Positions 15,052 to 31,694 are shown, counted from the stretch's first letter. The stretch is DNA of 50,615 nt from Bacillota bacterium (GCA_007130145.1 SLSY01000102.1:1-50615), one strand, 5' to 3'. Notes: generated by a model from the letters alone, not told the origin. Translations and numbers: made by a program.

Positions 15052-15984
15052 CTAGCGGTCAATGTATTCGGCCATCAACCGTTCGGCAACATCAATGGGG
15101 TCAAGCTCTCCGCTCCGAACTCGGTCGAATGCGTCTGCCAGTTCTGCCTTGGCTTGGCGCATGACGGCATTGACTAAACGGTCTTTGAGTATTTCTTCCA
15201 CTTCCGCCCGGAAGGTGTCCAGTTGTCGAGCGGCCAAATCCCCGCTGCTTTTCAGGTACGCTTGGTGCTTCACCACTTCTTCTTTCAGTTCCTCCAACCC
15301 TTCATCACGGCTGGCTACCGCTTTGATGATGGGCGGACGCCAACCTTGGGTCGGACGCAGATCCAGCATCATGCGAATCTCGGTTATCGTACGGTCTACT
15401 CCGTCGCGGTCGGCTTTGTTGATGCAAAAGACGTCGGCGATCTCCATGATCCCCGCTTTGATGCTCTGTATGTCGTCGCCAAGTCCAGGAGCCATGGTCA
15501 GCACCACCGTGCCAGCAAAACGCATGATGTCCACTTCCGACTGTCCGGCTCCTACGGTCTCCACCATGATCACATCAAAGCCAAAAGCATCCATGAGCCG
15601 GATGACTTCGCCGGTCGCCCGCGAAAGTCCACCCAGCGAGCCCCGGGTAGCCAAGCTGCGAATGAACACACCCTCATCGAGACCGTGGCGCTGCATACGT
15701 ACCCGGTCTCCCAACAACGCGCCGCCCGTAAAGGGGCTGGTGGGATCCACGGCCACAATGCCCACAGTATGCCCTTGCTTCCGATAGCAGGCCGCCAGCC
15801 CGTCGACCAGGGTGCTCTTCCCCACGCCCGGGGGACCCGTCACTCCAACAATATGCGTGCCGCGAGCGTGGCGGTAGGCATACCGGACCAGCTCCCGGCG
15901 ACCCTCATCACGATTCTCCACGGCGGTGATCGCCCGGGCCAAAGCCAACCGATCGCCGCGTTTGATTCCAGCCAAAAGATCCAT
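15052..15984 (-). CDS. meaB: Methylmalonyl-CoA mutase-associated GTPase MeaB (ArgK family)
   Basis: 310 aa with P-loop GPPGVGKST, VETVGAGQSE, and NKADRDG (NKxD). Confidence 0.9.
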   Translation of the reverse strand: MDLLAGIKRGDRLALARAITAVENRDEGRRELVRYAYRHARGTHIVGVTGPPGVGKSTLVDGLAACYRKQGHTVGIVAVDPTSPFTGGALLGDRVRMQRHGLDEGVFIRSLATRGSLGGLSRATGEVIRLMDAFGFDVIMVETVGAGQSEVDIMRFAGTVVLTMAPGLGDDIQSIKAGIMEIADVFCINKADRDGVDRTITEIRMMLDLRPTQGWRPPIIKAVASRDEGLEELKEEVVKHQAYLKSSGDLAARQLDTFRAEVEEILKDRLVNAVMRQAKAELADAFDRVRSGELDPIDVAERLMAEYIDR

Positions 15985-16080
15985 GTTAGACTAGCCTCCG
16001 CATGTGTATTGGTGATATTGAAACGCAGTTGGGGAGTTCATTATCTAGCATCGCATTCTCTTTTTTGGGCCCATTGTCCT

Positions 16081-16120
16081 GCCCAGAACAAAGGAGGAGG
16101 TATCAATGCCTCCTCCTTTG
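16081..16120 (-). terminator. Putative intrinsic terminator between mmdB and meaB
   Basis: Perfect 12-bp inverted repeat CAAAGGAGGAGG (16089-16100) / CCTCCTCCTTTG (16109-16120). On the minus strand the stem runs into TTTGTTCT. Confidence 0.5.
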
Positions 16121-16136
16121 CCCCTCATGGTGATGG

Positions 16137-17255
16137 TCAGCCCAAGACAACGAGAATAACACCCGCTGCCACTGCTGTACCGATGACACCCGCCACGTTG
16201 GGGCCCATAGCATGCATGAGCAGGTGATTCTCTGGGTTGGCCTCTCGACCCACGCGTTGTACCACCCGGGCGGCCATGGGTACTGCCGACACGCCAGCGG
16301 CCCCGATCATGGGGTTGATTTTGCCACCGCTGAGCCAGTAGAACACTTTGCCCAACAGGACACCGGCCGCGGTGCCCCCGGCAAAGGCCACCAGACCCAT
16401 ACCGATGATGAGCAAGGTATCAGGGGTAAGGAAACTGGCAGCATTCATCGTTGCTCCCACCGATAGCGCCAGTAAAATGGTAACGATGTTAATCAGCTCG
16501 TTTTGCGCCGTATTGGACAGTCGGACCGTAACCCCACTCTCTCTAAAAAGATTGCCCAGCATCAACATGCCGACCAACGGAGCGACGGGCGGCAGGACCA
16601 ACACAATAAAGAGAGTAACCATGATGGGAAAGAGGATACGCTCCACACGGGAGACGGTACGCATTTGGGCCATCACCACACTGCGCTCCTTCTTACTCGT
16701 TAACGCCTTGATGATGGGCGGTTGAATGAGGGGTACCAGTGACATGTAGGAATACGCTGCCACGGCAATGGGGCCCACCAAATGCGGTGCCAACCGCATG
16801 GTCAGATAGATGGCGGTGGGCCCATCGGCACCGCCAATGATACCGATGGAGCCTGCTTCGGCCAAGGTGAAACCATACATACGAGCTCCGATCAAAGCCA
16901 TATAGACTCCCACCTGAGAAGCAGCGCCCAATAGCACCGTAACCGGATTGGCCAGCAAAGGCCCAAAATCCGTCAGTGCGCCCACACCCAAGAAGATGAG
17001 AGGCGGAAAGATTTCGTGTCTGACCCCAAAGAAGAAGAAGTCAAGCAAGCCTCCTTCCTCCATCAGACCGGTCATGGGCAGATTTGCCAGGATGGTGCCA
17101 AAAGCGATAGGTACCAGTAAGAGCGGTTCAAAGCCTTTGGCAATGGCCAGGTAAAGCAACACGCCGGCAACAGCGAGCATGATGGCATTCCCAAAAGTGA
17201 AATGGGCAAAACCTGTGGTGGCAAACAATTCTTGCAAGATATCTAACCAGTTCAC
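16137..17255 (-). CDS. mmdB: Na+-translocating decarboxylase beta subunit (OadB/MmdB/GcdB family)
   Basis: 372 aa integral membrane protein with family-typical segments ([47 protein letters not shown]). Confidence 0.92.
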
Positions 17256-17271
17256 GTATTTCGTGCCCCTC

Positions 17272-17712
17272 TCACCCGATGATCAACAACAGATCACCTG
17301 TATTCACCGAAGCACCCTTTGCTACCTTGATTTCCTTGATCTGGCCATCACGAGGTGCAGTGATCTCATTTTGCATCTTCATCGCTTCGAGCACGAGCAA
17401 CACGTCTCCTGCTTTCACTTCTTGACCTGCTGTCACATGCACCTCGATGATGGTACCGGGAATGGGTGCATTGAGGGCACCAGCAGCCCTACTCCCTGCC
17501 TCTGACTTAGCTGATTCACTCGGTTTAGATTCGTCGGATACAGGCCTTTTCGGCGCCGGACGCTTGGCCTTGGGAGCCCCTCCTCCTGCGGGCGGCGCAA
17601 TGCGCACCTGAGGTGTAGCGTCACGTTGTGACCCAGACCCTCCCTGCTCTTCAACTTCTACCTCATATTCCTGGCCGTTGACAGTAACCCTGAACCTTCG
17701 CATGTAGTTCAT
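17272..17712 (-). CDS. mmdC: Biotin carboxyl carrier subunit of the decarboxylase (MmdC-like)
   Basis: 146 aa with an Ala/Pro-rich linker and a C-terminal biotinyl domain carrying the EAMKMQNEI biotinylation motif. Confidence 0.85.
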
Positions 17713-17747
17713 ACCCTCCCCATAACGGACTGTAGTTTAAAGTAATC

Positions 17748-18113
17748 TCATCTGCTCCCTGTCCTGCGTGCCGCCATAAGACCCTGCCGTCCTGCCATGA
17801 GCCACGGATTGCCCTCTTTCGCAGGGGCAACTGCCCGGCGGTCTCCTCCCATGTAAGCGCAGATAGCGGCCGTGATCACCGCGACTGTCTCATCGGGTAT
17901 GGCTTCCTCGACAGCCGCAGCTGCCGCTGTATCGTGATGCTCTTTATCCCCTGCCACCTCGGTGACGCTCTGCTTTGGCTCCCTGCTCCGGTTGTCGCCG
18001 CCAAAGACCATTCGGGATAGGGTGATCAACAGGCCCAGCACAATCAGGACACCGAAGACCACGGCCATGGCGATGACCGCCAATTGTATGGTAGCAGCAA
18101 ACGTATCGGGCAT
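17748..18113 (-). CDS. mmdD: OadG-family small membrane subunit (MmdD-like)
   Basis: 121 aa with a single N-terminal TM helix (IQLAVIAMAVVFGVLIVLGLLITL) and an AVITAAICAYMG-type tail. Its position between the carboxyltransferase and the biotin carrier fits this role. Confidence 0.7.
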   Translation of the reverse strand: MPDTFAATIQLAVIAMAVVFGVLIVLGLLITLSRMVFGGDNRSREPKQSVTEVAGDKEHHDTAAAAAVEEAIPDETVAVITAAICAYMGGDRRAVAPAKEGNPWLMAGRQGLMAARRTGSR

Positions 18114-18135
18114 GTCTGTTACCTCCTACTATGCC

Positions 18136-19692
18136 TTACAGCGGTATGTTGCCGTGCTTTTTGGCCGGTCGCAATTCCTGTTTGGAAAAGACGGTCTCCA
18201 GGGCATTGTACAGGCGAGTCCTGGTTTCGGCTACATCAATGACATCATCCACATAGCCGCGACTGGCCGCAACGTAAGGGTTGGCGAACTGCTCGCGAAA
18301 CTCGTCAATCTTCTCCTGACGTTTGGCTTGTGGATCGTCGGCCTGGCCGATTTCCTTGCGGAAAATAATGTTGGCAGCCCCTTCTGGTCCCATGACCGCA
18401 ATCTCTGCCGTGGGAAGGGCAAATACCATGTCCGCCCCCAGGTGGCGACTGCACATGGCAATGTATGCACCCCCATACGCCTTGCGAACGATCACGGTCA
18501 ACTTGGGAACGGTAGCCTCCGAATAGGCGTACAGCATCTTGGCTCCGTGGCGAATGATACCGCCCCACTCCTGGTCAACCCCGGGTAGATAGCCCGGAAC
18601 ATCCACGAATGTCACTAAAGGCACATTAAAGGCATCACAGAGCCGCACGAAACGAGCGGCTTTGTCGGACGCATCAATGTCGAGGCAACCGGCCCGCTCA
18701 CGAGGTTGATTGGCCACGATGCCAACCGGTCTCCCTCCCAGACGGGCAAAACCCACGATCATGTTGGTGGCAAACCAAGGGTGCACTTCCAGAAGCGTCC
18801 CCTGATCGATGACGGACTCAACCAACTCGTACATATCATATGAGCGGTTCGGATCTTCGGGAATGACCTCGCGTAGATGCTCTAAGCCGCGATCAACGGG
18901 ATCATCTCCCTCAAGGTATGGCGGACTTTCCAGATTATTGGCCGGCAAATAACTGAGCAGGGCGCGGACAGCGCTAAGACAGCTGGTCTCATCGTCATAA
19001 GCAAAATGGGCCACGCCACTGGTCTGGTTGTGAACCAAAGCCCCTCCCAAATCCTCTACCGAGACATCCTCATTGGTTACCGCTTTGATCACTTGCGGTC
19101 CGGTGATAAACATATTGCTGGTTCCCGACACCATGAAAACAAAATCTGTCAGGGCCGGAGAATACACCGCTCCGCCCGCACAAGGCCCAAGAATAACCGA
19201 GATCTGCGGCACGACGCCCGAGAGCACCGTATTACGGTAGAAAATGTCACCATAGCCTTTGAGGGCATCCACTCCCTCCTGAATGCGAGCACCACCCGAA
19301 TCATTTATGGAAATGAAAGGTATTCCCAGCTTGCGAGCCAAATCCATCACCTTGCAAATCTTATGCGCATGCATCTCCCCCAACGAACCTCCGATGACGG
19401 TGAAGTCCTGGGAAGCCACACACACCCGACGGCCTCCAATCATACCGTAGCCCACCACGACGCCTTCACCGGGCGCCTCTACCTTGTTCATCCCGAAGTT
19501 GTGGCTGCGATGTTCAGTAAAGGCATCGACCTCGACAAAACTCTCTTCATCTAAGAGCACCCCGAGTCGCTCACGCGCCGTCATCTTGCCGGCAGCATGT
19601 TGCTTATCGATGCGAGATGCTCCACCACCTTGTTCCACCTTGGCCCGCATCTCTCTTAATTGGGCCACTTTTGCATCCACGGTTTGTACCAC
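18136..19692 (-). CDS. mmdA: Methylmalonyl-CoA carboxyltransferase / acyl-CoA carboxylase beta-family alpha subunit (MmdA-like)
   Basis: 518 aa with two crotonase-like carboxyltransferase halves (SGGARIQEG, GPCAGGAVYSPALTDF, AYGGAYIAM). Methylmalonyl specificity is inferred from the meaB and sucCD context. A GcdA-type enzyme cannot be excluded. Confidence 0.88.
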   Translation of the reverse strand: MVQTVDAKVAQLREMRAKVEQGGGASRIDKQHAAGKMTARERLGVLLDEESFVEVDAFTEHRSHNFGMNKVEAPGEGVVVGYGMIGGRRVCVASQDFTVIGGSLGEMHAHKICKVMDLARKLGIPFISINDSGGARIQEGVDALKGYGDIFYRNTVLSGVVPQISVILGPCAGGAVYSPALTDFVFMVSGTSNMFITGPQVIKAVTNEDVSVEDLGGALVHNQTSGVAHFAYDDETSCLSAVRALLSYLPANNLESPPYLEGDDPVDRGLEHLREVIPEDPNRSYDMYELVESVIDQGTLLEVHPWFATNMIVGFARLGGRPVGIVANQPRERAGCLDIDASDKAARFVRLCDAFNVPLVTFVDVPGYLPGVDQEWGGIIRHGAKMLYAYSEATVPKLTVIVRKAYGGAYIAMCSRHLGADMVFALPTAEIAVMGPEGAANIIFRKEIGQADDPQAKRQEKIDEFREQFANPYVAASRGYVDDVIDVAETRTRLYNALETVFSKQELRPAKKHGNIPL

Positions 19693-19715
19693 CTCTCGCT
19701 CGAAAATAGGTTCAA

Positions 19716-20348
19716 TTACAAGGAAAACGCGAGTTGATGCAACTCCAATAGCACATCGGTATTTAGCACCCTGGTGTCTGGGGGCAATTCCAAACGAACC
19801 GGAGCAAAGTTGAGAAACGCCGTGATGCCGGCACGAAGAGCAGCTTCGGCAGCAGCTTGCGCCGCTATCCTGGGTACGGTGATGACACCAATACGCACGT
19901 GCCGCTCTTGCACCACCTTGGCCATGCTCTCGGGATCCTCAATCAACAGACCTTCCACTTCTCTTCCCTGCTTTTGGGGATCTAGGTCAAAAAGGGCTAC
20001 CACCTCAAATGAATGGGCCAGCTCCATATAAGGATAACGCCGAAGATAACGAGTAAGGGCCGTACCCAATTCACCCACACCGATGACAGCAACAGACACC
20101 ACCTGATCCGCTTTGAGCAAGGACGCCAGTTTACTTCTGAGTCGTATTACCTCGTAACCTACCCCTTGTTTGCCCAGTTGCCCGAAGTTAGCTAGATCCT
20201 TGCGAACCTGAGCCGCCGTGACGCCAGCCAACTGGCTCAGCTGCACCGAAGAGATGAAATCGTCATCGTCTTGGCTCCGCTCTTGCAGACAGCGCAGGTA
20301 GATAGCCAGCCGTCGCACGATCACATCGGGAACTGCTCGAAAGTCCAA
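19716..20348 (-). CDS. rex: Redox-sensing transcriptional repressor Rex
   Basis: 210 aa with an N-terminal winged helix (VPDVIVRRLAIYLRCL, SSVQLSQLAGVTAAQVRKDL) and a Rossmann domain (VAVIGVGELGTAL). Its stop lies 23 nt upstream of the mmdA start on the same strand. Confidence 0.9.
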   Translation of the reverse strand: MDFRAVPDVIVRRLAIYLRCLQERSQDDDDFISSVQLSQLAGVTAAQVRKDLANFGQLGKQGVGYEVIRLRSKLASLLKADQVVSVAVIGVGELGTALTRYLRRYPYMELAHSFEVVALFDLDPQKQGREVEGLLIEDPESMAKVVQERHVRIGVITVPRIAAQAAAEAALRAGITAFLNFAPVRLELPPDTRVLNTDVLLELHQLAFSL

Positions 20349-20393: not shown

Positions 20394-20930
20394 TTAGGCA
20401 AGCGGTCTTCCTACATGTTCTTCCAGCAAGCGCTGTACCCTTCCTACCAGGAATCCGGTGAACATTCCGGTGGGTACTGCCAGAAACATCATATGCGGCA
20501 AGAGCACCAGGATCCCTACCTGTCTGAGTATCCATACGACCAACAAGAGCTGGGTGAGGTTATGGGTGATGGCTCCCACTACGCTCACGCCCACCAGGCT
20601 GAAGCGTTTCTGACCCCAGCCGTGTACCAGACCCATCGCCAGTGTGCTCATCAAAGCACCACCCAGACTGAGAATGAATGCCAACGTACCAAACGTCCCG
20701 GCGATGAGGCTACCCAACACGGCACGGAGCCAGCTCACGGTCAAGGCAGGCCGCAATCCCCATACGCTCAGAGTGTACAGGGCGACCACATTGGCCAAGC
20801 CCAGTTTGGCTCCAGGAACGACAAAAGGTAAGGGGATCCACGTCTCCACCACGTGGAGGATGATGGCCATACTCACGAATAAGGACATCAGTGCCAAACG
20901 CCGCGTTGCAGAATCACCCCGCAAACCCAA
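20394..20930 (-). CDS. Gx transporter family protein (heptaprenyl diphosphate synthase component I-like membrane protein)
   Basis: 178 aa with 5-6 TM helices and the family-typical N-terminus LALMSLFVSMAIILHVVETWIPLPFVVPGAKLGLANVVAL. Its start lies 3 nt after the stop of the 709-aa antiporter-like gene. Confidence 0.7.
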   Translation of the reverse strand: MGLRGDSATRRLALMSLFVSMAIILHVVETWIPLPFVVPGAKLGLANVVALYTLSVWGLRPALTVSWLRAVLGSLIAGTFGTLAFILSLGGALMSTLAMGLVHGWGQKRFSLVGVSVVGAITHNLTQLLLVVWILRQVGILVLLPHMMFLAVPTGMFTGFLVGRVQRLLEEHVGRPLA

Positions 20931-20933
20931 GGC

Positions 20934-23063
20934 CTACCACCCCCCCAAACCGTAAATGAGAAACACAAGCAAAAGGCCCGTGAGCATCAACGCCACAACC
21001 AGCACAGAAATGGTGAAACTAAAGGGGTTGAAGTGAGGAGGTGATGGCTTCGTTTCCGTACCCGTTGGCGATTGTTCGCCCCAAGAGCGGGAGGTGCGTG
21101 GGCTGTCACCGCCGCTCTCGTTGGCCCAAGCGTCGTAAGACTTGTCCCGATGGCCATCAAGTTTGGCGGTTTTCTCGGTCATCTCTCGGGCCGTTTCACC
21201 TAAACGCTCGTAAGCGTTTCCCAAGGAGTTTTCAAACCCCAGGACCCGTTCCAAAGCCTCTCGTGAGCCTTTCCCCATGCTGTCGTAGCCACCACCCAGG
21301 GCTCTTTCCATCCCTGCTGTCCGCTCCATCAAAAAGACTAAGCCCACTGCCAGTTTACCATACAACCAGTTTATCCCATCATCCAAGATGCGGCCCATCC
21401 AAACAACAGCTGTGCTCATGATATGGAGACTGTAATCCACCGCACGTTCGGTCAACCGGTAGTCCTTACCCGGCTTGGCCCACAGCCCTCTTTGCCCCAG
21501 CACAAAGAGGGCCCCACCCAAAAGCAGAGTGCCACCGGTTTTGATGAAGGCCCCTCGGTCGTAGAAAGAGACTCCCTCCAGCCCCGGCAAGGCCAGACCA
21601 CTCTCGGTCACGACCGGAGCTACCCAAAGCTGCAATATCCCGTGGGGAAAACTGCCCAGAGCCACAAGCCCACCGCCCAAAACGGCCAGATACAGCCCGG
21701 CAGGCCAAAAGCTTAGCGGTGGTTTCACCACGGGCAGGTCGCGCTGGGGCAAGAGAACCACGAAGAGACGGAGCACGTAAACGATGGTCAAAGCGCTCCC
21801 TAGAAAGAACGCTTGATCCAGCAATATGGTCCAAAACGAGGGGAATTCGTAGTGTAATGCGCCCATCGCTTTGTGTAACAGGTTCTTGGAAACAAAACCA
21901 TTGAAAAGGGGAAGCCCTGCCAGACCCCCCGCCATGAACACGGCCATGAGGTGGCTGTACTTTGGCCAACGCACTGTGCGCGTGAGGATCACTCCTAAAG
22001 CCAGAAAGAGTCCCGCTTTAAACAAAGAATGGTTGACCAAGTGCAGGACACTGGCTCCCAAAGCCAGGCCTGATTCCTGACCTAACAGGGTGAAAGCTCC
22101 TAAACCCACCAGTAAATACCCTACCTGGCTTATGCTGGAATACGCCAGCAACGATCGGACGTTCCGTTGCCAGCTGGCCATCACCGCCCCGACCAGTACT
22201 GACGTCATCCCAAGCACCAGCAAAACGACACCCCAGCCCGTAAATACCCCTTCCCTCCCATATGAAGTGAAAGCCATCGTGGTTCTGAGGATTCCGTAAA
22301 CCCCCGTCTTAATGAGGATACCAGAAGAAAGGGCACAGACCATGAAGGACATGGCCGGGTAGACCTGTACCATCCACAAGTGTAGAGGCATAATGCCCGC
22401 TTTCACCCCAAAGCCCACCAGCAGCGGAGCGGCCACGTAAGCCGGGGGTATGCCCTGGGCCACCAGCTGGTCCAGTACTGGCTCCCAGGATGTATGACCG
22501 GTGACGGCATACAGGGTAAACAGGCCAAACAACAGGCAAAGCCCCCCGGCGATGCTCAAATACAAGTAGGTATTACCCGCTGCCAGAGCCCGGGGTGAAC
22601 CGTGGTGTATAATCAAGACATAAGACGATAAAGCCATGATCTCAAAGAAGAGAAAGAGAGTGAACAAGTCGCCACTGAAAAAGACTCCCATCACTGCGCC
22701 CAGCGTCATGAGCAAAGCAGCATAGAAACGACGGCTGTGCCTGAGATGCTCGAGGGCATGAGGTGATAAGAGGCAAATCCCCAGCCACAACCAAGCGCCG
22801 AGAGAGGCCAGACCCCAATCCAGGTAGTCTACGCCCAGGATCAAACCCAAACCCAGTACACCGGGGAATTCTCTGTACACGGGACGCAGGCTCACGGTAC
22901 TAAACAGAGCCAGGACCATGATGAGGACTAGAACACTAACGGAAAGGGCCACCCAGAAGGCCCGTTGGCGCGCCCCATAACAGGCACACGCACCCACCCA
23001 AGGTAACAGCAAGATGACGGCCATGAGCAGACCGGGGGATTGATCGATCAAACCCACCATCAC
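20934..23063 (-). CDS. Proton-conducting antiporter-like membrane subunit (NuoL/MrpA/MrpD family) with a long C-terminal extension
   Basis: 709 aa with a PF00361-like core (FFEIMALSSYVLI, AYSSISQVGYLLVG, HLVNHSLFKAGLFL). A hydrophilic, partly repetitive tail of about 110 aa follows, then one terminal TM helix (ISVLVVALMLTGLLLVFLIYGLGGW). The ATGA overlap with the upstream gene suggests coupling. Confidence 0.85.
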   Translation of the reverse strand: MMVGLIDQSPGLLMAVILLLPWVGACACYGARQRAFWVALSVSVLVLIMVLALFSTVSLRPVYREFPGVLGLGLILGVDYLDWGLASLGAWLWLGICLLSPHALEHLRHSRRFYAALLMTLGAVMGVFFSGDLFTLFLFFEIMALSSYVLIIHHGSPRALAAGNTYLYLSIAGGLCLLFGLFTLYAVTGHTSWEPVLDQLVAQGIPPAYVAAPLLVGFGVKAGIMPLHLWMVQVYPAMSFMVCALSSGILIKTGVYGILRTTMAFTSYGREGVFTGWGVVLLVLGMTSVLVGAVMASWQRNVRSLLAYSSISQVGYLLVGLGAFTLLGQESGLALGASVLHLVNHSLFKAGLFLALGVILTRTVRWPKYSHLMAVFMAGGLAGLPLFNGFVSKNLLHKAMGALHYEFPSFWTILLDQAFFLGSALTIVYVLRLFVVLLPQRDLPVVKPPLSFWPAGLYLAVLGGGLVALGSFPHGILQLWVAPVVTESGLALPGLEGVSFYDRGAFIKTGGTLLLGGALFVLGQRGLWAKPGKDYRLTERAVDYSLHIMSTAVVWMGRILDDGINWLYGKLAVGLVFLMERTAGMERALGGGYDSMGKGSREALERVLGFENSLGNAYERLGETAREMTEKTAKLDGHRDKSYDAWANESGGDSPRTSRSWGEQSPTGTETKPSPPHFNPFSFTISVLVVALMLTGLLLVFLIYGLGGW

Positions 23064-24556
23064 CAGCCTCCCAGTTGGAAGAGATAGCGGGCAGAAAACC
23101 CAGACAATGAGAACGGCAAGCTGTTAGGGTATATGGCGAATACGAGGATGGCACCAGCCAGCACTAGTATGGGAACGAGCATTTTCACGTCGGTTTCATT
23201 CTCCCAGCGGATGCCAGGGAACTCTGGATAAGAGTCGTCCGCTCCAAAGAAACCATTGATGACAACCGGGAAAAGGTAGACAGCGTTCATCAAGCTCGAC
23301 AGTAGCATGACCACGACCAACCAGGGGCGCCCTACATCCAACATGCCTACACTCAGCTGCCACTTGGACAAGTAGCCTGCCAAGGGAGGAATGCCTACCA
23401 TAGACAGGGAGGCCAAACCAAAAGCACCAAGGGTCAAGGGCATGCGCATCCCGATCCCCTCAAGTTGGGAAACGTATCGTTTGCCCGTCTTGTGAGCGAA
23501 GGCTCCTGCCACCAGAAAGAGAGCAGCCTTCATGAAAGCATGACTGAAGATATGAAAGATCGCGCCAAAAAGCGCCCGCTCGGACAGAACAGCGATTCCC
23601 AGCATAATATACCCCATCTGTCCCACACTGGAATAAGCCAGGCGCCGCTTGAGGTCGTCCTGCAAAATGGCCACGCACGAACCCAGAAGAATGCTGATGA
23701 CCGCCATATAGACGACCGGCTCTAACCAATGGGTACGCCGGAGCAGCTCAATGCCGTAGACATTATAGACGATGCGCAAGAAACCATAAGCCCCCACCTT
23801 GAGCAAGAGGCCGGAAAGCAGGGCACTGGCCGGGGAGGGAGCCACCGGATGGGCATCGGGGAGCCATACATGCAACGGGAATATGCCAGCTTTGATGCCA
23901 AAGCCCAGGACAAAGGCGATGAAGGCTCCCAAAGCCAGATTGGATGGAGCACCAATGATGCCTCCCGTACCCAGCGTGAGGGTTCCGGCAAGTTCAAAGA
24001 CGGAAATGATCCCGAAAAAGAGGAGCAAGCTACCACAGATGGTCATGATCAAGTATTTGTAGCCCGCCTTCATGGCTTCGGGCGTCTGCTCTTGAATGAT
24101 GAGCACATAGGAGGCCAGGGACATGAACTCGAAAAAGACGAAGAAAGTGAACAAGTCTCCTGCCAACACCACGCCCAGGCTCCCCCCGAGAATCAGGGTG
24201 AGAAACGGGTAGTAGCGCTTCTTATGATGCTCCCGTACCATATAGGCCAGGGAATATATGGCCACCGCCAACCATACCAGGGCAATGATAGCAGCCATGA
24301 GAAAGGCTATGGGATCCACGCGAAACGACAGGCCCAAGGGAGGCAAGATGTCCGGAAAGGCCTTGGTAAGAAGTTGGCCCCGGGCAATGTAGGGATACAT
24401 CGCCGCCACCATGACACAGGTCAACGCCGAAACGATCACGGTCAGGCCGTTTCGCCACTTCCATGACCTTTGTTCAACCACGTAAATAAGACCTGTTCCC
24501 ACCAGGGGAAGCAAGGTAATCCATACGGGTAACCAAGACACTACACTATGGAACAC
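23060..24556 (-). CDS. mrpD: Mrp/Mnh antiporter subunit D-like (NuoN/M family)
   Basis: 498 aa with FFEFMSLASYVLI, WLPDAHPVAPSPASALLSG, AYSSVGQMGYIMLG, and HIFSHAFMKAALFL. Confidence 0.9.
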   Translation of the reverse strand: MFHSVVSWLPVWITLLPLVGTGLIYVVEQRSWKWRNGLTVIVSALTCVMVAAMYPYIARGQLLTKAFPDILPPLGLSFRVDPIAFLMAAIIALVWLAVAIYSLAYMVREHHKKRYYPFLTLILGGSLGVVLAGDLFTFFVFFEFMSLASYVLIIQEQTPEAMKAGYKYLIMTICGSLLLFFGIISVFELAGTLTLGTGGIIGAPSNLALGAFIAFVLGFGIKAGIFPLHVWLPDAHPVAPSPASALLSGLLLKVGAYGFLRIVYNVYGIELLRRTHWLEPVVYMAVISILLGSCVAILQDDLKRRLAYSSVGQMGYIMLGIAVLSERALFGAIFHIFSHAFMKAALFLVAGAFAHKTGKRYVSQLEGIGMRMPLTLGAFGLASLSMVGIPPLAGYLSKWQLSVGMLDVGRPWLVVVMLLSSLMNAVYLFPVVINGFFGADDSYPEFPGIRWENETDVKMLVPILVLAGAILVFAIYPNSLPFSLSGFSARYLFQLGGW

Positions 24557-24576
24557 GATTCACCATCTCCATCTCA

Positions 24577-26031
24577 TCATATACCCAATAAGGACAAGAG
24601 TGGCCCGGGGAAAAGCCCCAATAGAACGGTGGCCAACGCGAACAGCAATATGGGACCAAGGAGCATGGGATGGGGTTCTTGTGCCGACTTGTCCTCGGAC
24701 CATTCCCCAAAAAAGGCCGAAATGAGAATGGGGAAGTAATACAACCCACTCAGCAAACTAGCCACGAGAATGACCAGCACATAGAAGGGTTGTCCCGCAT
24801 CCAGTGCTCCCAGCGTCAGATACCATTTGCTCACAAAACCACTGAAGGGAGGAATACCCACCATCCCCAAAGCCCCCACCCCAAACGCTGCCAGCGTCAG
24901 GGGGAGGCGCTGACCAAGACCGGAAAAATTGTGCACATCTCGGGTTCCCGCCACCTGAGCCATGGCACCCGCTGTCAAAAAGAGACCACTTTTCATAATG
25001 GCATGGTAGATAATATGCAGCGCTGCTCCCGCCAGAGCCCGGGGAGTGCCCAAACCCAGACCTAAGAAGATGTAGCCAATGTTGGCAACGGTCGAATAAG
25101 CCAGCAAGCGCTTGATATCACGTTGGCCCAGGGCAAGGAGGGAACCCGCCAACGTTCCCAGGGTTCCCAGGGCCAACAGTAGCTGCCTGGCAGGGACGGC
25201 CTCCAAGAGGCCCATCCCAAAGACCAGGTCGAAAATGCGCCACAAAGAAAGAATGAAGACCTTGACCACCAATCCCGATAACAGGGCGCTGGCAGTGGTT
25301 GGCCCCGAGGAGTGAGCGTCAGGCAGCCACAAGTGCAAGGGGAAAAGCGCGGCCTTGATCCCCATTCCCAGGAGCAAAAAGCCCAGAGCAGCATAGACCA
25401 CCCGAGGATAATTCAGCACCGCGGTGGTGATTTCTTCCCCCGCCAGTGCCATATTGAGATGTCCCGTGACCATGTAGAGCAAGGCAACTGCCATCAAGAT
25501 AGCACCGGAGCCCAGCGCACCCAAAATCAGATAACGGAAACTGGCCTCCGTGGCCAGCTTATCTCCCTTGACTGCTATGATACCACAAGCAGTTAGAGAC
25601 GTAAGCTCTACCAAGACGAAGAGGTTGAACAAGTCTGCCGCTACGATCACGCTGTACATGGAAGCCAAAAGTATCATGATCAGGGCAAAATACCGGCCCA
25701 CCACGCTATCTTGCAATTCTGTGTAGGAGTCCTTGAGAGCATAGACCAAGACCAGCAAGGCTACCACAGTGAGCGTGATTCCACCCAAAGCCGCCCGGCT
25801 GTCCACCCAAATCTCAATGCCCCAGGGGGGGGGCCACCCACCCATGAAATAGCGCTGAGGTCCTTCCCGAGCCACCTGAAGAACCACCCACAAGGTACTT
25901 ACCACGCACATTGCTGTGCTTGCCAAGACCAAGGGTGCTAAACCTCGCCTGTACCAGCGATAGACGATGGGGGCAGCATAACCGGCCGCCAAGAACACTA
26001 CAATGGGCACAATGGTAAAGACGTTATTCAT
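24577..26031 (-). CDS. mrpD: Mrp/Mnh antiporter subunit D-like (MbhH-like)
   Basis: 484 aa with WLPDAHSSGPTTASALLSG, AYSTVANIGYIFLG, and HIIYHAIMKSGLFL. It overlaps the mrpC stop by 4 nt. Confidence 0.9.
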   Translation of the reverse strand: MNNVFTIVPIVVFLAAGYAAPIVYRWYRRGLAPLVLASTAMCVVSTLWVVLQVAREGPQRYFMGGWPPPWGIEIWVDSRAALGGITLTVVALLVLVYALKDSYTELQDSVVGRYFALIMILLASMYSVIVAADLFNLFVLVELTSLTACGIIAVKGDKLATEASFRYLILGALGSGAILMAVALLYMVTGHLNMALAGEEITTAVLNYPRVVYAALGFLLLGMGIKAALFPLHLWLPDAHSSGPTTASALLSGLVVKVFILSLWRIFDLVFGMGLLEAVPARQLLLALGTLGTLAGSLLALGQRDIKRLLAYSTVANIGYIFLGLGLGTPRALAGAALHIIYHAIMKSGLFLTAGAMAQVAGTRDVHNFSGLGQRLPLTLAAFGVGALGMVGIPPFSGFVSKWYLTLGALDAGQPFYVLVILVASLLSGLYYFPILISAFFGEWSEDKSAQEPHPMLLGPILLFALATVLLGLFPGPLLSLLGI

Positions 26032-26429
26032 CGTTCCTGACTCCGCAAGTGGGCTATCTCATCGGCATCGAGGGTTCCGTAAAAGCGGTAGAGCTTGACA
26101 ATCAGACCCAAGGCAAACGCCGTAATGCTGACAGCAATGACAATGCCGGTGAGAATCAGCGCTGACGGCACCGGATTAACGTAAACCTCGCCGCTGCCCG
26201 CCGTGTGTCCCACCTCAAAAATGGGGGCTTTTCCGCCCCTGACATAGCCGCTGGCCACGAAAAGCAAGAAGACTGCGGTCTCCATGATATTCATTCCCAT
26301 GACCTTCTTGATTAGATTGGCATTCACCAACATCGTGTGAAACCCGATGACAAAGAGCAAGACGGCCACAAAGTAGACGGAGTTCGCCCCAAGACTACTG
26401 AGTATGCCCATCTGGCTCGTCCTCCTCAT
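26028..26429 (-). CDS. mrpC: Mrp/Mnh antiporter subunit C (NuoK-like, MbhG-like)
   Basis: 133 aa with three TM helices and the motif NLIKKVMGMNIMETAVFLLFV. The true start may be the internal ATG at 26411. Confidence 0.85.
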   Translation of the reverse strand: MRRTSQMGILSSLGANSVYFVAVLLFVIGFHTMLVNANLIKKVMGMNIMETAVFLLFVASGYVRGGKAPIFEVGHTAGSGEVYVNPVPSALILTGIVIAVSITAFALGLIVKLYRFYGTLDADEIAHLRSQER

Positions 26430-26844
26430 CGTGAATGGTTCCCAGCACCAGTTCCCGGTACAGGGACTGCATGGTGCTGCCTACTTTGACTCCGATGGCC
26501 AGGGCCACCACCAGGATCAGCCCGCCCGAAAGCTGCGTTCCCGGCACGCCCAGGGGAAATACCCCCCGGTTGGTCAAAAAACTCTGACCGGCCAATAGTC
26601 CCACCAGGCCTGCACCCAGGTAGAGCCCCAGAGAAGAGCTTTCCAGAAGAGACGCCATATCCTCTTCCACCGGCTCGCAGCGAACCAAAGCCCTTAATAC
26701 AATAGACGAAGCCACAATGGTTCCGCCCGCAAAGGCACCGCCGGGGGCCAAATGTCCGTTGGCAATCACATACATGCCGAACAGTTGAATACAAGGCACG
26801 ATCACCCGCACAAGCAAAAGGAGAATGGGGCTAACTACTAACAC
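26395..26844 (-). CDS. mrpB: Mrp/Mnh antiporter subunit B-like (MbhF-like)
   Basis: The track ORF (to 27012) overlaps the upstream gene. The GTG at 26844 follows a GAGGAGG SD and gives about 150 aa with the MnhB motif GHLAPGGAFAGG. Confidence 0.75.
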   Translation of the reverse strand: MLVVSPILLLLVRVIVPCIQLFGMYVIANGHLAPGGAFAGGTIVASSIVLRALVRCEPVEEDMASLLESSSLGLYLGAGLVGLLAGQSFLTNRGVFPLGVPGTQLSGGLILVVALAIGVKVGSTMQSLYRELVLGTIHDEEDEPDGHTQ

Positions 26845-27143
26845 ATTCCCCCTCCTCTCGGAGGGCGCTTGGCACCCACCGTCAGCGCGGCAATGGTCGC
26901 CATGATAGACACGAAGAGTACTGTTGCCTCTCCCAGTGTGTCGTAGGCACGGTAGTCCAAAATGATAGCGGAAATCGCATTCAGTGCCCCTGTATCCTCC
27001 ACCACCTGCCAAATCATTCGTTCCGACAGCACATTATCCTGAGGTCTGTCGGCACTGCCAAACTGGGGCATATCCATCACCACCATGGCCAACAAGAGGA
27101 GCACGAGCACCATGGTTAGGGTTGAAATAACGTTCCTGATCAT
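26838..27143 (-). CDS. MbhE-like / MrpA C-terminal-region-like small membrane subunit
   Basis: 101 aa with one N-terminal TM helix and the conserved DYRAYDTLGE motif typical of the MnhB / MrpA C-terminal region. Size and position match MbhE. Confidence 0.7.
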   Translation of the reverse strand: MIRNVISTLTMVLVLLLLAMVVMDMPQFGSADRPQDNVLSERMIWQVVEDTGALNAISAIILDYRAYDTLGEATVLFVSIMATIAALTVGAKRPPRGGGMC

Positions 27144-27397
27144 TTCCGATCATACCTTTGGGTACGAGAAATCGCTGCCAAAAACAGCAGTGAGGTCAAA
27201 CCCGCCCCGATGGCAGCCTCCGTGATGGCAATATCCGGAGCTCTTAGCATCTGCCAGATAATGGCCATGGCCAAGCCGTGCGCGGCGAACAACACCACCG
27301 CACTTAACAGGTCCTTAGTGTGAGCCACAGCGAGCGCTGTAACCACCATAAGCAGGAGCAACAGGCCAAGTAGAATGTCGGTCAGCATTCTGGTCAC
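27140..27397 (-). CDS. DUF4040 / MbhD-like small membrane subunit (MrpA C-terminal-region-like)
   Basis: 85 aa with three TM helices and the motif APDIAITEAAIGAG. It overlaps both neighbouring genes by 4 nt. Confidence 0.75.
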   Translation of the reverse strand: MTRMLTDILLGLLLLLMVVTALAVAHTKDLLSAVVLFAAHGLAMAIIWQMLRAPDIAITEAAIGAGLTSLLFLAAISRTQRYDRK

Positions 27398-27723
27398 CCC
27401 TCTTTGGTATAATCGAATGTTTCAACCGGTACCTGCTGTCGCCAGTACACCGCCCGGGCCAACAAGTGTGAACCCGTGGGATTGGTTAACCAGAGAAATC
27501 CCAGGATCAGCACAAGCTTAGCTCCTGGCACCGTAAGTCCCTGGTATACCAAAAGCCCCAAGAGCAACAGCCCTGCTCCGAGAGTATCACACTTGGTGGT
27601 GGCATGAATCCGTGTGAATACATCAGGCAAACGGATGAGGCACACCGTTCCCACGATGAAAAAGAACGTCCCTCCCGACAACAGTAATACCACCAAGACA
27701 TCTTTGAGCATGGCCGCGCTCAC
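27394..27723 (-). CDS. mrpG: Mrp/Mnh antiporter subunit G
   Basis: 109 aa with the MnhG signature GTVCLIRLPDVFTRIHATTKCDTLGAG. Confidence 0.85.
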   Translation of the reverse strand: MSAAMLKDVLVVLLLSGGTFFFIVGTVCLIRLPDVFTRIHATTKCDTLGAGLLLLGLLVYQGLTVPGAKLVLILGFLWLTNPTGSHLLARAVYWRQQVPVETFDYTKEG

Positions 27724-27729
27724 CCTTTC

Positions 27730-27993
27730 TCAATCTAGTCTACCTTTCTCCAAGTACTTGGCCATCCCTACCGTGGCCAAGAAGGAGATTAAAGCATAGA
27801 CCAAGCCAACATCCAAAAAGAACGCCTGATCAAAGGCAAAGGAGATCAAAACCATCACGATCACGGCCTTGGTACCGATGACATTGATCGCAATGATGCG
27901 GTCGGCGGGTGTGGGTCCAATAATAGCCCGGTATAGCGCCACAAAAATGGTCACCAGAAGTATCAGGGCAACCCCTATGAACAGTTCATCCAA
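27730..27993 (-). CDS. mrpF: Mrp/Mnh antiporter subunit F
   Basis: The MrpF motif LYRAIIGPTPADRIIAINVIGTK is present. The track ORF extends to 28095 but overlaps mrpE. The TTG at 27993 is my proposed start, giving 87 aa. Confidence 0.8.
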   Translation of the reverse strand: MDELFIGVALILLVTIFVALYRAIIGPTPADRIIAINVIGTKAVIVMVLISFAFDQAFFLDVGLVYALISFLATVGMAKYLEKGRLD

Positions 27994-28484
27994 CCGCCAT
28001 CCACCTTTCCCGTAGCCTCGATTTGCAAAAGGAGTTCCTCCATAATCCACCCTTGCACCCCATCCGCTGCTTCCTTGGTCAGGGCGTGCACCCATAAAGA
28101 ATCTCTAGTAACGTGCAGAGTTAATGTACCGGGTGTTAAGGAAATCGTAGTGGCAAGAACAACTCGGCCCACTTCACTCTGGATGCGAGTGGGGAAGTGA
28201 ATCACCCGGGGAGCGATACGCAAGCGCGGACTGAGAACGATCTTAGCCACCTGCACATTGGCCTTGAACAGTTCCAAAACAAAGCGAAGAACATAGATCA
28301 GCCACAGCCGCAGGCCCCGTCCATTCATGCCGGGTATTTCCTGGGGTTTCAATAAGGAATCCCGGTTAGAAGCTACGACAAGCATAGCAGCAACCACAGC
28401 GGCTAGAACCACCTGCCATGACCAGGCGCCGGCCAACACCAGCCAGAAAAGGACTAACAGAACCAACCACATAACCTGTGTCAC
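27975..28484 (-). CDS. mrpE: Mrp/Mnh antiporter subunit E
   Basis: 169 aa with two N-terminal TM helices (MWLVLLVLFWLVLAGAWSW) and an MnhE-like body (LELFKANVQVAKIVLSPRL, SLTPGTL). It is the first gene of the cluster. Confidence 0.8.
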   Translation of the reverse strand: MTQVMWLVLLVLFWLVLAGAWSWQVVLAAVVAAMLVVASNRDSLLKPQEIPGMNGRGLRLWLIYVLRFVLELFKANVQVAKIVLSPRLRIAPRVIHFPTRIQSEVGRVVLATTISLTPGTLTLHVTRDSLWVHALTKEAADGVQGWIMEELLLQIEATGKVDGGWMNCS

Positions 28485-29154
28485 GACCCCTCATCCCTTC
28501 CGGTCTGCCCCGTGATGACGAACGACACCTAACACAAAATGCCGGGGACAAACCCTCTCCCAACCGGTGGCATGTAGTTCCCATAAGATGGACTCAGTTG
28601 CAGGCAACGGGTTCAAAACCGACAAGACATGGTTCCACCACTCCGGTCGCCTCGTCCCCCGCAAATCATCTTACCCATGCCAGAACCACTCTTTGGCTAT
28701 ACCGATCAGAGCCCCGACCAAGCCACTTCACAGCGCGCTCCCGTTTTTCGCCCTTTTACTGGCATAACTCCTCATCAAAGTGGATCAATCCACTGCCATC
28801 ACTCGCATATCTATGGCTGAACGCGCCCGAGCCACATCACCGGTGCCAGTACAAGCATCAAGGGCCCTCCTCGTGGGCCCCCATTCCAGACTCTACACCA
28901 ATGCCCGTGGCCCATCCTGACAAGCGCACCCGGCTCATACAGGCACGAATACGGTCATTACCGGTGCTTAGCTCAGCGAATACTGCTCCTATATCGTCTG
29001 GCTTGACAGTCAATGAGTCGCCCAATGTGCGCGCACGTCACGAGCACCTCAAAGTAGATTATTTTCTTGTTCATTCTATCACAGGCCCTGTATCATAACA
29101 AGAAGCCCTAACCTGACATGATTCGAGGGATCAGCCGAAATCTTCCAGCGTCAT

Positions 29155-30086: not shown

Positions 30087-31694
30087 ATGCCGGATCTTGC
30101 TCAGCCGGAGGCCAAGCAAAAGCCCAGCCGTATCATCGCCTTATCTGGCGCCTGCCTGTTGCTCCTGCTGGCAGTGCTTCTTGCCGTCTTGCCAGCGGAC
30201 GCAACCATTCAAGCGGCTAACTATACCTTTTTGGCCTTTCGCGCCCACCCCTATGCCCGAGTAACCGCTCTGGGTTTCTCTCTATTGGGAGCCGGGGGCA
30301 TGCTCTATGCTAGCACGGGCATTCTCAGTCCTGCTGCCCAAGCAGTAGCGTTGTCCGCTGTCTTGTCGGCCATCGCCGTCATCAAGGCTGATAACCTGCT
30401 CTCCTTCTTCATCTTTTGGGAAATGCTGGCTTGGCTCACTCTCTTGTTAGTCGTCATGGATCAAAAACTCACCCGACGCCTGCTGGCCACTACGTTTGCG
30501 TATCTCCTCACCCACCTGGTGGGGGGATTGATGTTGCTGGTAGGCTTCGCTCGCCAGTACGCGCTCACCGGATCGATGGCTCTTAATCCGCTTGAAGCCG
30601 GTGCCATACCCTTCGCCCTCATCGCCGTGGGCATCAAGGCCGCCTTCATCCCCCTCAATTACTGGATTCCTGCGGCTTATCCGGAAGCCACCTACCCAGC
30701 CAGCGTCTTCTTGTCGGGGCTTTCCACCAAGGTCGGTGTACTGGCCATTGTCCGCCTCCTCCATCCTCATCCAGCCATCGCCTACATGGGAGGAGCCATG
30801 GCCCTGTTGGGGGTGGTCTTTGCCTTGCTACAGGTCGATATGCGACGTCTATTGTCCTGGCACATTGTCAGTCAGGTAGGTTACATGGTGGCCTGCATGG
30901 CCTGGGGCACCCCGCAAGCCACCGATGCTGGGTTGCTTCATGTGTTCAACCACATTCTCTACAAGGGCGCTCTCTTCATGGCCGCCGGGTGCGTAATTCG
31001 CCAAACAGCAACGGAGAACCTCAAAAGTCTCAGTCAGCGCTACTCGGTCTCGTTCCTGGTCACGGCATCGGCGCTGGTGGCAGCCCTCTCCATCAGCGGT
31101 GCACCTCCGTTCAATGGCTTCGTATCCAAGACACTGATTAAGTACGCGATCGAGGACCCGCTGCTTTCCTTCATGCTCCTGGTAGCTAGCGTGGGTACGG
31201 CAGCGTCTTTCACCAAATTCATGTACTTGGGGTTTTTATCAGCCCGAAAGAACAAGAACGAACCGGGGCGGCGTCTCCCTCTGGGCATGCAGTTGGGTTT
31301 GGGAGGACTGGCCGGATTGTGCCTTGTGACCGGCCTCTTTCCACAAAGCGTTAAAGGGTTTTTGCCCTATGCCTCTTCCATACCCGTCTACCGCGTGGGC
31401 TCTATCCTGCCAGCAGTCGTTTCGCTGGTGGGTGGGATCGTGGCGTTTACCTTAGCCAGCTGGTTGTTGCCCCGGATTCCCTTTTTGGCGCCACCCCTCA
31501 AGTTTATCAGAGCCGTGGAGTGGTGGTTCACAAACTGGTTCCTCCATGACCGCTTTACCCATGCCCTGCAGAGCATCAACAAGCGAGTCCTGGCCGGATC
31601 CCAGAGGTACGAGCGGCTAGAACAGGTGGGCTTGGCCGTTGTCATGGTCGCTGTGTCCATATTTGCCATTCTGTGGATCATCCTTCTCCACTAG
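30087..31694 (+). CDS. Orphan proton-conducting antiporter-like membrane subunit (NuoL/M/N-MrpD family)
   Basis: 535 aa with FIFWEMLAWLTLLLV, SWHIVSQVGYMVA, and HVFNHILYKGALFM. A GGAAAGGAG SD lies upstream. Confidence 0.85.
   Translation: MPDLAQPEAKQKPSRIIALSGACLLLLLAVLLAVLPADATIQAANYTFLAFRAHPYARVTALGFSLLGAGGMLYASTGILSPAAQAVALSAVLSAIAVIKADNLLSFFIFWEMLAWLTLLLVVMDQKLTRRLLATTFAYLLTHLVGGLMLLVGFARQYALTGSMALNPLEAGAIPFALIAVGIKAAFIPLNYWIPAAYPEATYPASVFLSGLSTKVGVLAIVRLLHPHPAIAYMGGAMALLGVVFALLQVDMRRLLSWHIVSQVGYMVACMAWGTPQATDAGLLHVFNHILYKGALFMAAGCVIRQTATENLKSLSQRYSVSFLVTASALVAALSISGAPPFNGFVSKTLIKYAIEDPLLSFMLLVASVGTAASFTKFMYLGFLSARKNKNEPGRRLPLGMQLGLGGLAGLCLVTGLFPQSVKGFLPYASSIPVYRVGSILPAVVSLVGGIVAFTLASWLLPRIPFLAPPLKFIRAVEWWFTNWFLHDRFTHALQSINKRVLAGSQRYERLEQVGLAVVMVAVSIFAILWIILLH

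Follow-up and report, generated by a model that had tools for sequence, protein, structure and literature searches.

The contig analysed here (SLSY01000102.1:1-50615 of the Bacillota bacterium assembly GCA_007130145.1; 50,615 nucleotides, referred to as the window) carries on its minus strand, from position 28484 to 20934, ten consecutive co-directional open reading frames (ORFs), most of which overlap. The products of the ten genes very probably assemble into one membrane complex that functions as a stand-alone Na+/H+ antiporter of Mrp (CPA3) group 3 and that, judged from the sequences, is built like the membrane arm of the Pyrococcus furiosus complexes MBS and MBH. All ten products scored above the Pfam gathering cut-off for the expected family, the NCBIfam models agreed with these assignments, and each Mrp subunit type is present once in the genome. 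The Mrp/CPA3 subunit set is complete, with MrpE, MrpF, MrpG, the MrpB domain and MrpC all above cut-off. The gene order is that of an MBH/MBS-type arm, E-F-G-D-E-F(B)-G(C)-H, with the corresponding chains of the solved structures 6cfw and 6u8y as top hits. Group 3 Mrp systems have been defined as having no mrpA and mrpD only, sometimes in several copies (PMC8415708); the cluster likewise has no full-length mrpA gene and contains tandem MrpD-type subunits. A preliminary description of this DNA had proposed a ten-gene Mbh-like cluster at this location, which was borne out by ten Pfam-supported ORFs on the minus strand, including all of the small subunits (MnhE/F/G, MbhD, MbhE, MnhB and NuoK-like) when these were checked with hidden Markov models.

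In a similarity search of the subunits against all solved structures, the small subunits matched the membrane-arm chains of P. furiosus MBS and MBH better than Bacillus Mrp. The 85-aa protein matched MbsD (1.3e-13) and MbhD (3.6e-13), compared to 0.007 for residues 654-716 of MrpA, and the 101-aa protein matched the N-terminal part of MbsE (2.3e-11) and MbhE (2.2e-9) and had no match to a Bacillus-type Mrp. For the 149-aa protein the values were 7.6e-13 with MbhF and 1.9e-5 with MrpB. MrpC reached 93 bits with MbsG versus 43 bits with Bacillus MrpC, and the best solved relatives of MrpF were MbhB and MbsB (53 bits, versus 38-48 bits for MrpF). In NCBIfam, positions ~600-790 of the full-length MrpA models are also covered by the 85- and 101-aa proteins. 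The solved counterparts have similar lengths (MbsD/MbhD 94/96 aa, MbsE-N/MbhE 99 aa, MbhF 148 aa and the antiporter chain 510 aa). Thus, the Mbh-like order and subunit sizes noted in the preliminary description hold (96, 99, 148 and 510 aa in the solved chains), as do the MbhD-, MbhE- and MbhF-like assignments of the three small genes, which have Pfam as well as solved-chain matches. The residues of the predicted coupling site likewise follow the MBS/MBH pattern. The glutamate in the 'ITEAA' stretch of the MbhD-like protein is placed as in MBH and MBS, one helical turn ahead of the Bacillus MrpA glutamate. The D-x4-D-x3-E motif of the MbhE-like protein ('DYRAYDTLGE') is kept and was found in 42 of 43 related loci, and MrpC has the MBS-type 'IMET' glutamate at the position of Ser/His in Bacillus MrpC.

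The last three genes encode the antiporter-like subunits that had been claimed for the cluster; the products of 484, 498 and 709 aa, called D1, D2 and D3 here, are all PF00361 proteins. They were placed by ranking their matches to the solved chains and to the models of NCBIfam. D1 has MbsH (224 bits), MbhH (197) and MrpD (188) as its best solved relatives and D2 has MbhH (235 bits) and MrpD (170), while for D3 the ranking is MbsH′, then MbhH and MrpA. MbsH′ is the MBS subunit that is equivalent to the N-terminal pump of MrpA. The glutamate in transmembrane helix (TM) 5, the lysines in TM7, TM8 and TM12 and the His/His/Lys motif in TM11 are kept in D1, D2 and D3, so that each of them appears to be a working proton half-channel. 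D3 was modelled with AlphaFold2 from 31 orthologues. The model has a confident core of 14-15 helices with a predicted local distance difference test score (pLDDT) of mostly 80-95. Beyond this core follows a tail modelled with low confidence, in which a linker separates two long helices (540-590 and 600-649) from the TM helix at the terminus (685-708). Foldseek placed MrpA, NuoL and MbsH′ at the top for this model with ~650 aligned columns, compared to ~500 for MrpD- and NuoM-type chains. By sequence and predicted fold, D3 is of the MrpA-N/NuoL/MbsH′ class.

The preliminary description had stated that MrpA is absent as a single gene. Indeed, no ORF joins PF00361 with the MbhD/MbhE domains, the cluster has three tandem PF00361 genes, D3 is without the MrpA C-terminal domain, and the C-terminal region of MrpA is found in separate small genes. 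The N-terminal equivalent, however, is present as the 709-aa D3. Therefore, MrpA is split rather than missing: D3 corresponds to MrpA-N with the lateral helix and its anchor, and MrpA-C is represented by the MbhD- and MbhE-like proteins. The net difference from a canonical Mrp is one extra MrpD-type pump.

In the solved MBH, MBS and complex I structures, the redox module docks via NuoH/MbhM and NuoB/D-type subunits. The source genome (2.37 Mb, 258 contigs, 96% complete) gave zero matches to Complex1_49kDa (PF00346, NuoD/MbhL), Oxidored_q6 (PF01058, NuoB/MbhJ) and NADHdh (PF00146, NuoH/MbhM); the control for these catalytic-subunit searches was positive in 11 of 14 reference genomes. There is no NuoB/C/D/H/I-like gene 3′ of the cluster, where the next gene belongs to PF07456, and no catalytic module was found beside the cluster in ~42 related loci. 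The genome has four PF00361 genes, all inside the window, and neither the NuoH quinone module nor the peripheral arm of complex I turned up in the genome searches. The claim that the cluster has no catalytic module can thus be extended to the whole genome.

These results bear on the two functions that had been proposed for the cluster. One was a headless respiratory membrane arm, that is, a redox-driven pump to which a soluble NuoEF-type, hydrogenase or formate dehydrogenase module encoded elsewhere would dock. The gene order, which equals that of the MBS/MBH arm, would fit this proposal, and the same possibility, a 'membrane part of NADH:quinone oxidoreductase', was raised for the equivalent cluster in the genome paper on 'Ca. 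Contubernalis alkaliaceticus' (PMC10608574). Since the proteins of the docking interface are missing from the genome and no docking subunit is encoded beside the cluster in the ~42 related loci, the headless arm is not supported; in the 96%-complete genome the search for NuoB/D/H-like or Mbh/Mbx/Mbs catalytic genes found none. In addition, the full Na+ module (E, F, G, B) is retained as in true antiporters, and we consider a redox-driven arm highly improbable. The other proposal, a stand-alone multi-channel Na+/H+ antiporter, agrees with the full subunit set, the kept channel residues and the missing redox head.

As a stand-alone antiporter, the complex might be organised as follows. Going by their homologues in the solved Mrp, MBH and MBS complexes, MrpE, MrpF, MrpG and MrpB would form the cation module, and MrpC together with the two parts of the split MrpA C-terminal domain (the MbhD- and MbhE-like proteins) would form the coupling site. 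D1, then D2, then D3 would follow in a row as three proton half-channel subunits, and the cytoplasmic helical extension of D3 with its terminal TM helix would run back over D2 and D1 as a lateral brace. Such a complex would exchange Na+ for H+ without redox input, driven by the dominant gradient, and would most likely interconvert the sodium-motive and proton-motive forces and set the cytoplasmic pH. We infer the subunit arrangement, ion specificity, stoichiometry and transport direction; the direction is not readable from sequence.

The C-terminal extension of D3 is helical and ~110 residues long. It consists of four tandem 25-residue repeats (window 20934-21420, residues ~560-650) with the pattern D..LD..Y...G..A and tyrosines at 568, 593, 618 and 643, followed by a Ser/Pro/Thr linker and the terminal TM helix. 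D3 orthologues (L021-L076) have approximately three to seven of these repeats, then a conserved W.xKNL.FD motif and the terminal TM helix. It has been reported that the length of the lateral helix scales with the number of pumps spanned (PMC8165549), which fits the long D3 extension. Some relatives encode a fourth tandem antiporter-like protein of ~680 aa after D3 (L041:5243-7288, L042 and G018:C15); therefore, the number of pumps varies within the clade.

Genes for sodium-dependent energy metabolism are found close to the cluster and elsewhere in the genome. The PF07456 gene is followed after 45 nt by rex and then by genes for a biotin-dependent methylmalonyl-CoA decarboxylase (window 15052-20348) with carboxyltransferase, biotin carrier and Na+-pumping OAD_beta subunit, the pump being located 3.7 kb downstream of the cluster. 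The genome encodes the rotor subunits of both ATPase types, subunit c of the F-type (C153:4943-5131) and subunit K of the V-type (C38:13551-13973). The c subunit has the pattern Q...ESTxxY and the K subunit the pattern T-Q / Q / E, which we take to be sodium-binding from what is known of the Ilyobacter tartaricus and Enterococcus hirae proteins. With a decarboxylase sodium pump, an Rnf complex and rotor subunits carrying these motifs, the cell appears to run on a sodium cycle.

In MrpF, Asn37 (window 27883-27885) replaces an aspartate that is conserved in all five solved Mrp/MBH/MBS homologues. This aspartate is located on the proposed Na+ path and corresponds to D35 in Anoxybacillus flavithermus and D38 in Bacillus pseudofirmus. 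It has been called 'invariant', and the A. flavithermus D35L variant is inactive (PMC7419157); D-to-N substitutions were tolerated in B. subtilis itself (cited in PMC7419157).

Several observations weigh against a conventional Na+/H+ antiporter with a lateral brace. The MrpF position is Asn (34) or Ser (6) in 40 of 42 clade members, counted by a simple pattern in which the two 'Asp' readings come from a loose match, so that the cations may take another path. The model gave the D3 extension a pLDDT of <50, which would be expected if a brace is modelled apart from its partner subunits, and the repeats of the extension have a more polar character than is typical of an amphipathic helix. D3 of the window has 'WMVQVYP' where the orthologues keep 'WLPxAHP', so that the WLPxAH motif is lost. 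The replacement in MrpF might mean that the same architecture moves another cation (K+/H+ or Ca2+/H+ exchange) or that the sodium path is altered, and Ca2+/H+ antiport has been reported for one Mrp (PMC5703873). This seems unlikely, since the MbhD glutamate, the MbhE D/D/E motif and the MrpC Glu/Asp of the cation path are kept, the D-to-N changes in B. subtilis are tolerated and the whole cell appears to be wired for Na+. Exchange of Na+ for H+ stays the preferred reading.

To find related loci, the D2 protein was used as query against species-representative genomes, which returned 80 loci; D3 as a single query against genome contigs found no relatives. All ten genes are present in the same order in 32 of these loci and the first nine in 10 more. 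The 32 loci are counted at the species level and are from genomes other than the source genome; accordingly, at least 32 species share the complete cluster. Most of the loci are from Bacillota metagenome-assembled genomes (MAGs) labelled Dethiobacter, Syntrophomonadaceae or Bacillota, and D2 identity is 50-57% in the related Dethiobacter and Syntrophomonadaceae MAG loci. By isolate names and record titles alone, many relatives seem to originate from sediments of soda lakes, from serpentinite springs, from deep aquifers and from digesters.

The usual order in more than 30 related species-level loci is rnfCDGEAB - mrp(10) - apbE - PF07456/eetB - maf - radC. The rnf-mrp-apbE block (L023-L076, for example L048:507-16695) is co-directional with short gaps or overlaps, and rnfCDGEAB was confirmed by Pfam. 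The source genome encodes rnf-apbE-maf-radC on another contig (C204, ~15152 to 7903) without Mrp, and the block of Mrp and PF07456 genes adjoins rex and the methylmalonyl-CoA decarboxylase genes instead. A relative from the same family (G001), examined by ORF listing, Pfam and translation, has the same derived arrangement with Mrp apart from rnf-apbE. The tight spacing in more than 30 loci might point to a supercomplex in which Mrp is the partner of Rnf and couples ferredoxin:NAD+ electron transfer to additional ion translocation. We regard such a supercomplex as very unlikely: the Mrp cluster is separated from rnf-apbE in the source genome and in G001 and still looks intact, Rnf alone already translocates ions, and shared regulation of sodium cycling explains the co-transcription equally well. 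Furthermore, the [ST]GA[ST] flavinylation motif is absent from all ten proteins and is not consistent in D3 orthologues.

The apbE neighbour in the relatives raised the possibility of a flavinylated Mrp subunit, which was rejected because of the missing motif and because the usual substrates of ApbE are encoded in the Rnf operon directly upstream. PF07456 is the EetB family, the ECF-S-like subunit of a FAD exporter that supplies ApbE, and it co-localises with Rnf in 572 Clostridia genomes (PMC9973259). This known Rnf-linked role in FAD export also speaks against ApbE as a sign of Mrp flavinylation. It likewise led us to reject PF07456 as an eleventh Mrp subunit, although the gene moved together with Mrp in the source lineage; the PF07456 gene is therefore an Rnf-maturation gene and a co-transcribed passenger, not an Mrp subunit. 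In two relatives (L021:11863-13296 and L022), a FAD_binding_2 flavoprotein of 477-504 aa replaces apbE between D3 and the PF07456 gene.

The ten-gene layout, which occurs in dozens of anaerobic Bacillota, is already known from published genomes, and the cluster is ordinary in this respect, with a routine group 3 Mrp annotation. 'MrpEFGBBBCD, MrpDD' was listed for the serpentinite MAG NPL-UPA2 'Unc8' (PMC6305446), a ten-gene antiporter (HUE98_01720-01765) follows directly after Rnf in 'Ca. Contubernalis alkaliaceticus' (PMC10608574), and 'mrp DealDRAFT_2487-2497' was reported for Dethiobacter alkaliphilus (PMC5609068). These clusters, which are known from annotation alone, have the same gene order and subunit count as the one described here. 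They are located between rnf and apbE, whereas the cluster of the window has moved beside rex and the decarboxylase genes with only PF07456. The preliminary description had made its case depend on this exact order not being that of a known, characterised Mrp subgroup. The order has in fact been published (PMC6305446, PMC10608574) and falls into group 3 (PMC8415708), but for the three-pump sub-type itself our literature search turned up no biochemical or structural work.

Comparison with characterised systems shows where the cluster differs. The stand-alone group 3 Mrp of P. furiosus (mrpEFGBB′CD, PF1147-53), whose deletion phenotype ties it to Na+-coupled pH homeostasis (PMC8415708), has the same E-F-G-B-C-D order and is likewise without a full-length mrpA and a redox module. 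It has one pump subunit compared to three here, its MbhD and MbhE parts are fused and not separate, and a subunit of MrpA-N type that carries a lateral helix is missing. P. furiosus MBS (MbsA-H′, 6u8y) and MBH (MbhA-H, 6cfw) provide the best matches for D1 (MbsH), D2 (MbhH) and D3 (MbsH′), and the equivalents of MbhD and MbsG have their glutamates in the same places. However, their catalytic modules (MbhJKLMN and MbsJKLMN) are found nowhere in the source genome, the cluster has one pump more than MBS and two more than MBH, and their MrpF/MbhB aspartate is an asparagine here. With the group 1/2 Mrp structures (A. flavithermus 6z16, B. pseudofirmus 7qru and Dietzia 7d3u) the cluster shares the seven functional domains, the proton-channel residues and a predicted D3 fold that is nearest to MrpA. 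In contrast to these, MrpA is split into three genes and an extra MrpD is present, MrpC has the MBS/NuoK pattern with a glutamate and not the Bacillus histidine pair, and the lateral extension is much longer. The arm of complex I (NuoL-M-N-K-J) also has three antiporter-like subunits in a row, and its distal subunit is of the NuoL class, as is D3 with its long C-terminal helix that could reach across D1 and D2. Unlike complex I, the cluster has a sodium module (E, F, G, B) and neither NuoH/A nor a peripheral arm.

The preliminary description had also stated that most junctions are 4-nt overlaps, which was overstated. Seven of the nine internal junctions overlap, and only four of these are 4-nt ATGA/GTGA overlaps (G/MbhD, MbhD/MbhE, C/D1 and D2/D3). 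Three are longer (E/F 19 nt, MbhE/B 7 nt and B/C 17-35 nt), and the remaining two junctions are short gaps (F/G 6 nt and D1/D2 20 nt). The features are listed in the table.

Table. Genes of the Mrp cluster and the gene next to it. Columns: gene: name or likeness; product: length in amino acids; position: coordinates in the window (strand); domain: Pfam match with score; remarks: start codons and further assignments.
Gene	Product (aa)	Position (strand)	Domain	Remarks
mrpE / mbhA-like	169	27975..28484 (-)	PF01899 MNHE, 103 bits	GTG start
mrpF / mbhB-like	87	27730..27993 (-)	PF04066 MrpF_PhaF, 63 bits	TTG start at 27993, 19 nt into mrpE
mrpG / mbhC-like	109	27394..27723 (-)	PF03334 PhaG_MnhG_YufB, 96 bits	TIGR01300 above cut-off
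MbhD/MbsD-like	85	27140..27397 (-)	PF13244, 76 bits	first half of MrpA C-terminal domain
MbhE-like	101	26838..27143 (-)	PF20501, 35 bits	second half of MrpA C-terminal domain
mrpB / mbhF-like	149	26395..26844 (-)	PF04039 MnhB, 73 bits	GTG start at 26844 after AGGAGG
mrpC / mbhG / NuoK-like	133	26028..26429 (-)	PF00420 Oxidored_q2, 84.5 bits	likely start ATG at 26411 (127 aa)
D1, MrpD/MbsH/NuoN-like antiporter subunit	484	24577..26031 (-)	PF00361, 209 bits	expected beside MrpC
D2, second MrpD/MbhH-like antiporter subunit	498	23060..24556 (-)	PF00361, 233 bits; PF00662	extra pump
D3, MrpA-N/NuoL/MbsH′-class subunit	709	20934..23063 (-)	PF00361, 133 bits	distal pump
EetB-type ECF-S-like FAD-export subunit		20394..20930 (-)	PF07456, 148 bits	start 3 nt past D3

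In the 670-bp gap 5′ of mrpE (28485-29154), two promoter-like sites overlap each other on the minus strand at ~29119-29073. Both have extended -10 elements, and a transcript starting here would have a leader of ~590 nt. Another promoter-like site is located on the minus strand at 20401-20373. Consensus scans for promoters and terminators were not clearly above shuffled controls, and an Rfam scan of the 670-bp gap gave no match. The fourth PF00361 protein of the window is encoded by a lone, divergent gene (535 aa, 30087-31694, plus strand) past a gene of the PF01048 purine/uridine phosphorylase family. Its channel residues are conserved, and its best NCBIfam match is PRK12668 'Na+/H+ antiporter subunit D' (335 bits, below cut-off). 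Like Nt-Nha of Natranaerobius, this protein may work as an antiporter made of a single subunit; a counterpart was not found in the family relative G001.

A more far-reaching and rather doubtful possibility is that the clade represents a functionally distinct Mrp sub-type that is tuned to partner Rnf in sodium-based anaerobes. Three features point in this direction. The third proton channel could raise the H+/Na+ ratio, which is speculation. Cation entry may be remodelled, with Asn/Ser for Asp in MrpF and the NuoK-type glutamate in MrpC. The D3 brace with its exact 25-residue repeats might serve as a modular ruler, each repeat spanning ~37 Å by our own estimate, which is roughly one pump width. 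The common co-transcription with Rnf suggests that Rnf plus Mrp is a standard unit for sodium/proton balancing in these organisms. Altogether, dozens of anaerobic Bacillota encode this uncharacterised Mrp sub-type, which has the pump count of complex I and no redox head. The three-pump Mrp would therefore be a clean system to study in what way ion stoichiometry depends on the number of antiporter-like subunits and which role the lateral helix plays, two questions that are both still debated for complex I.

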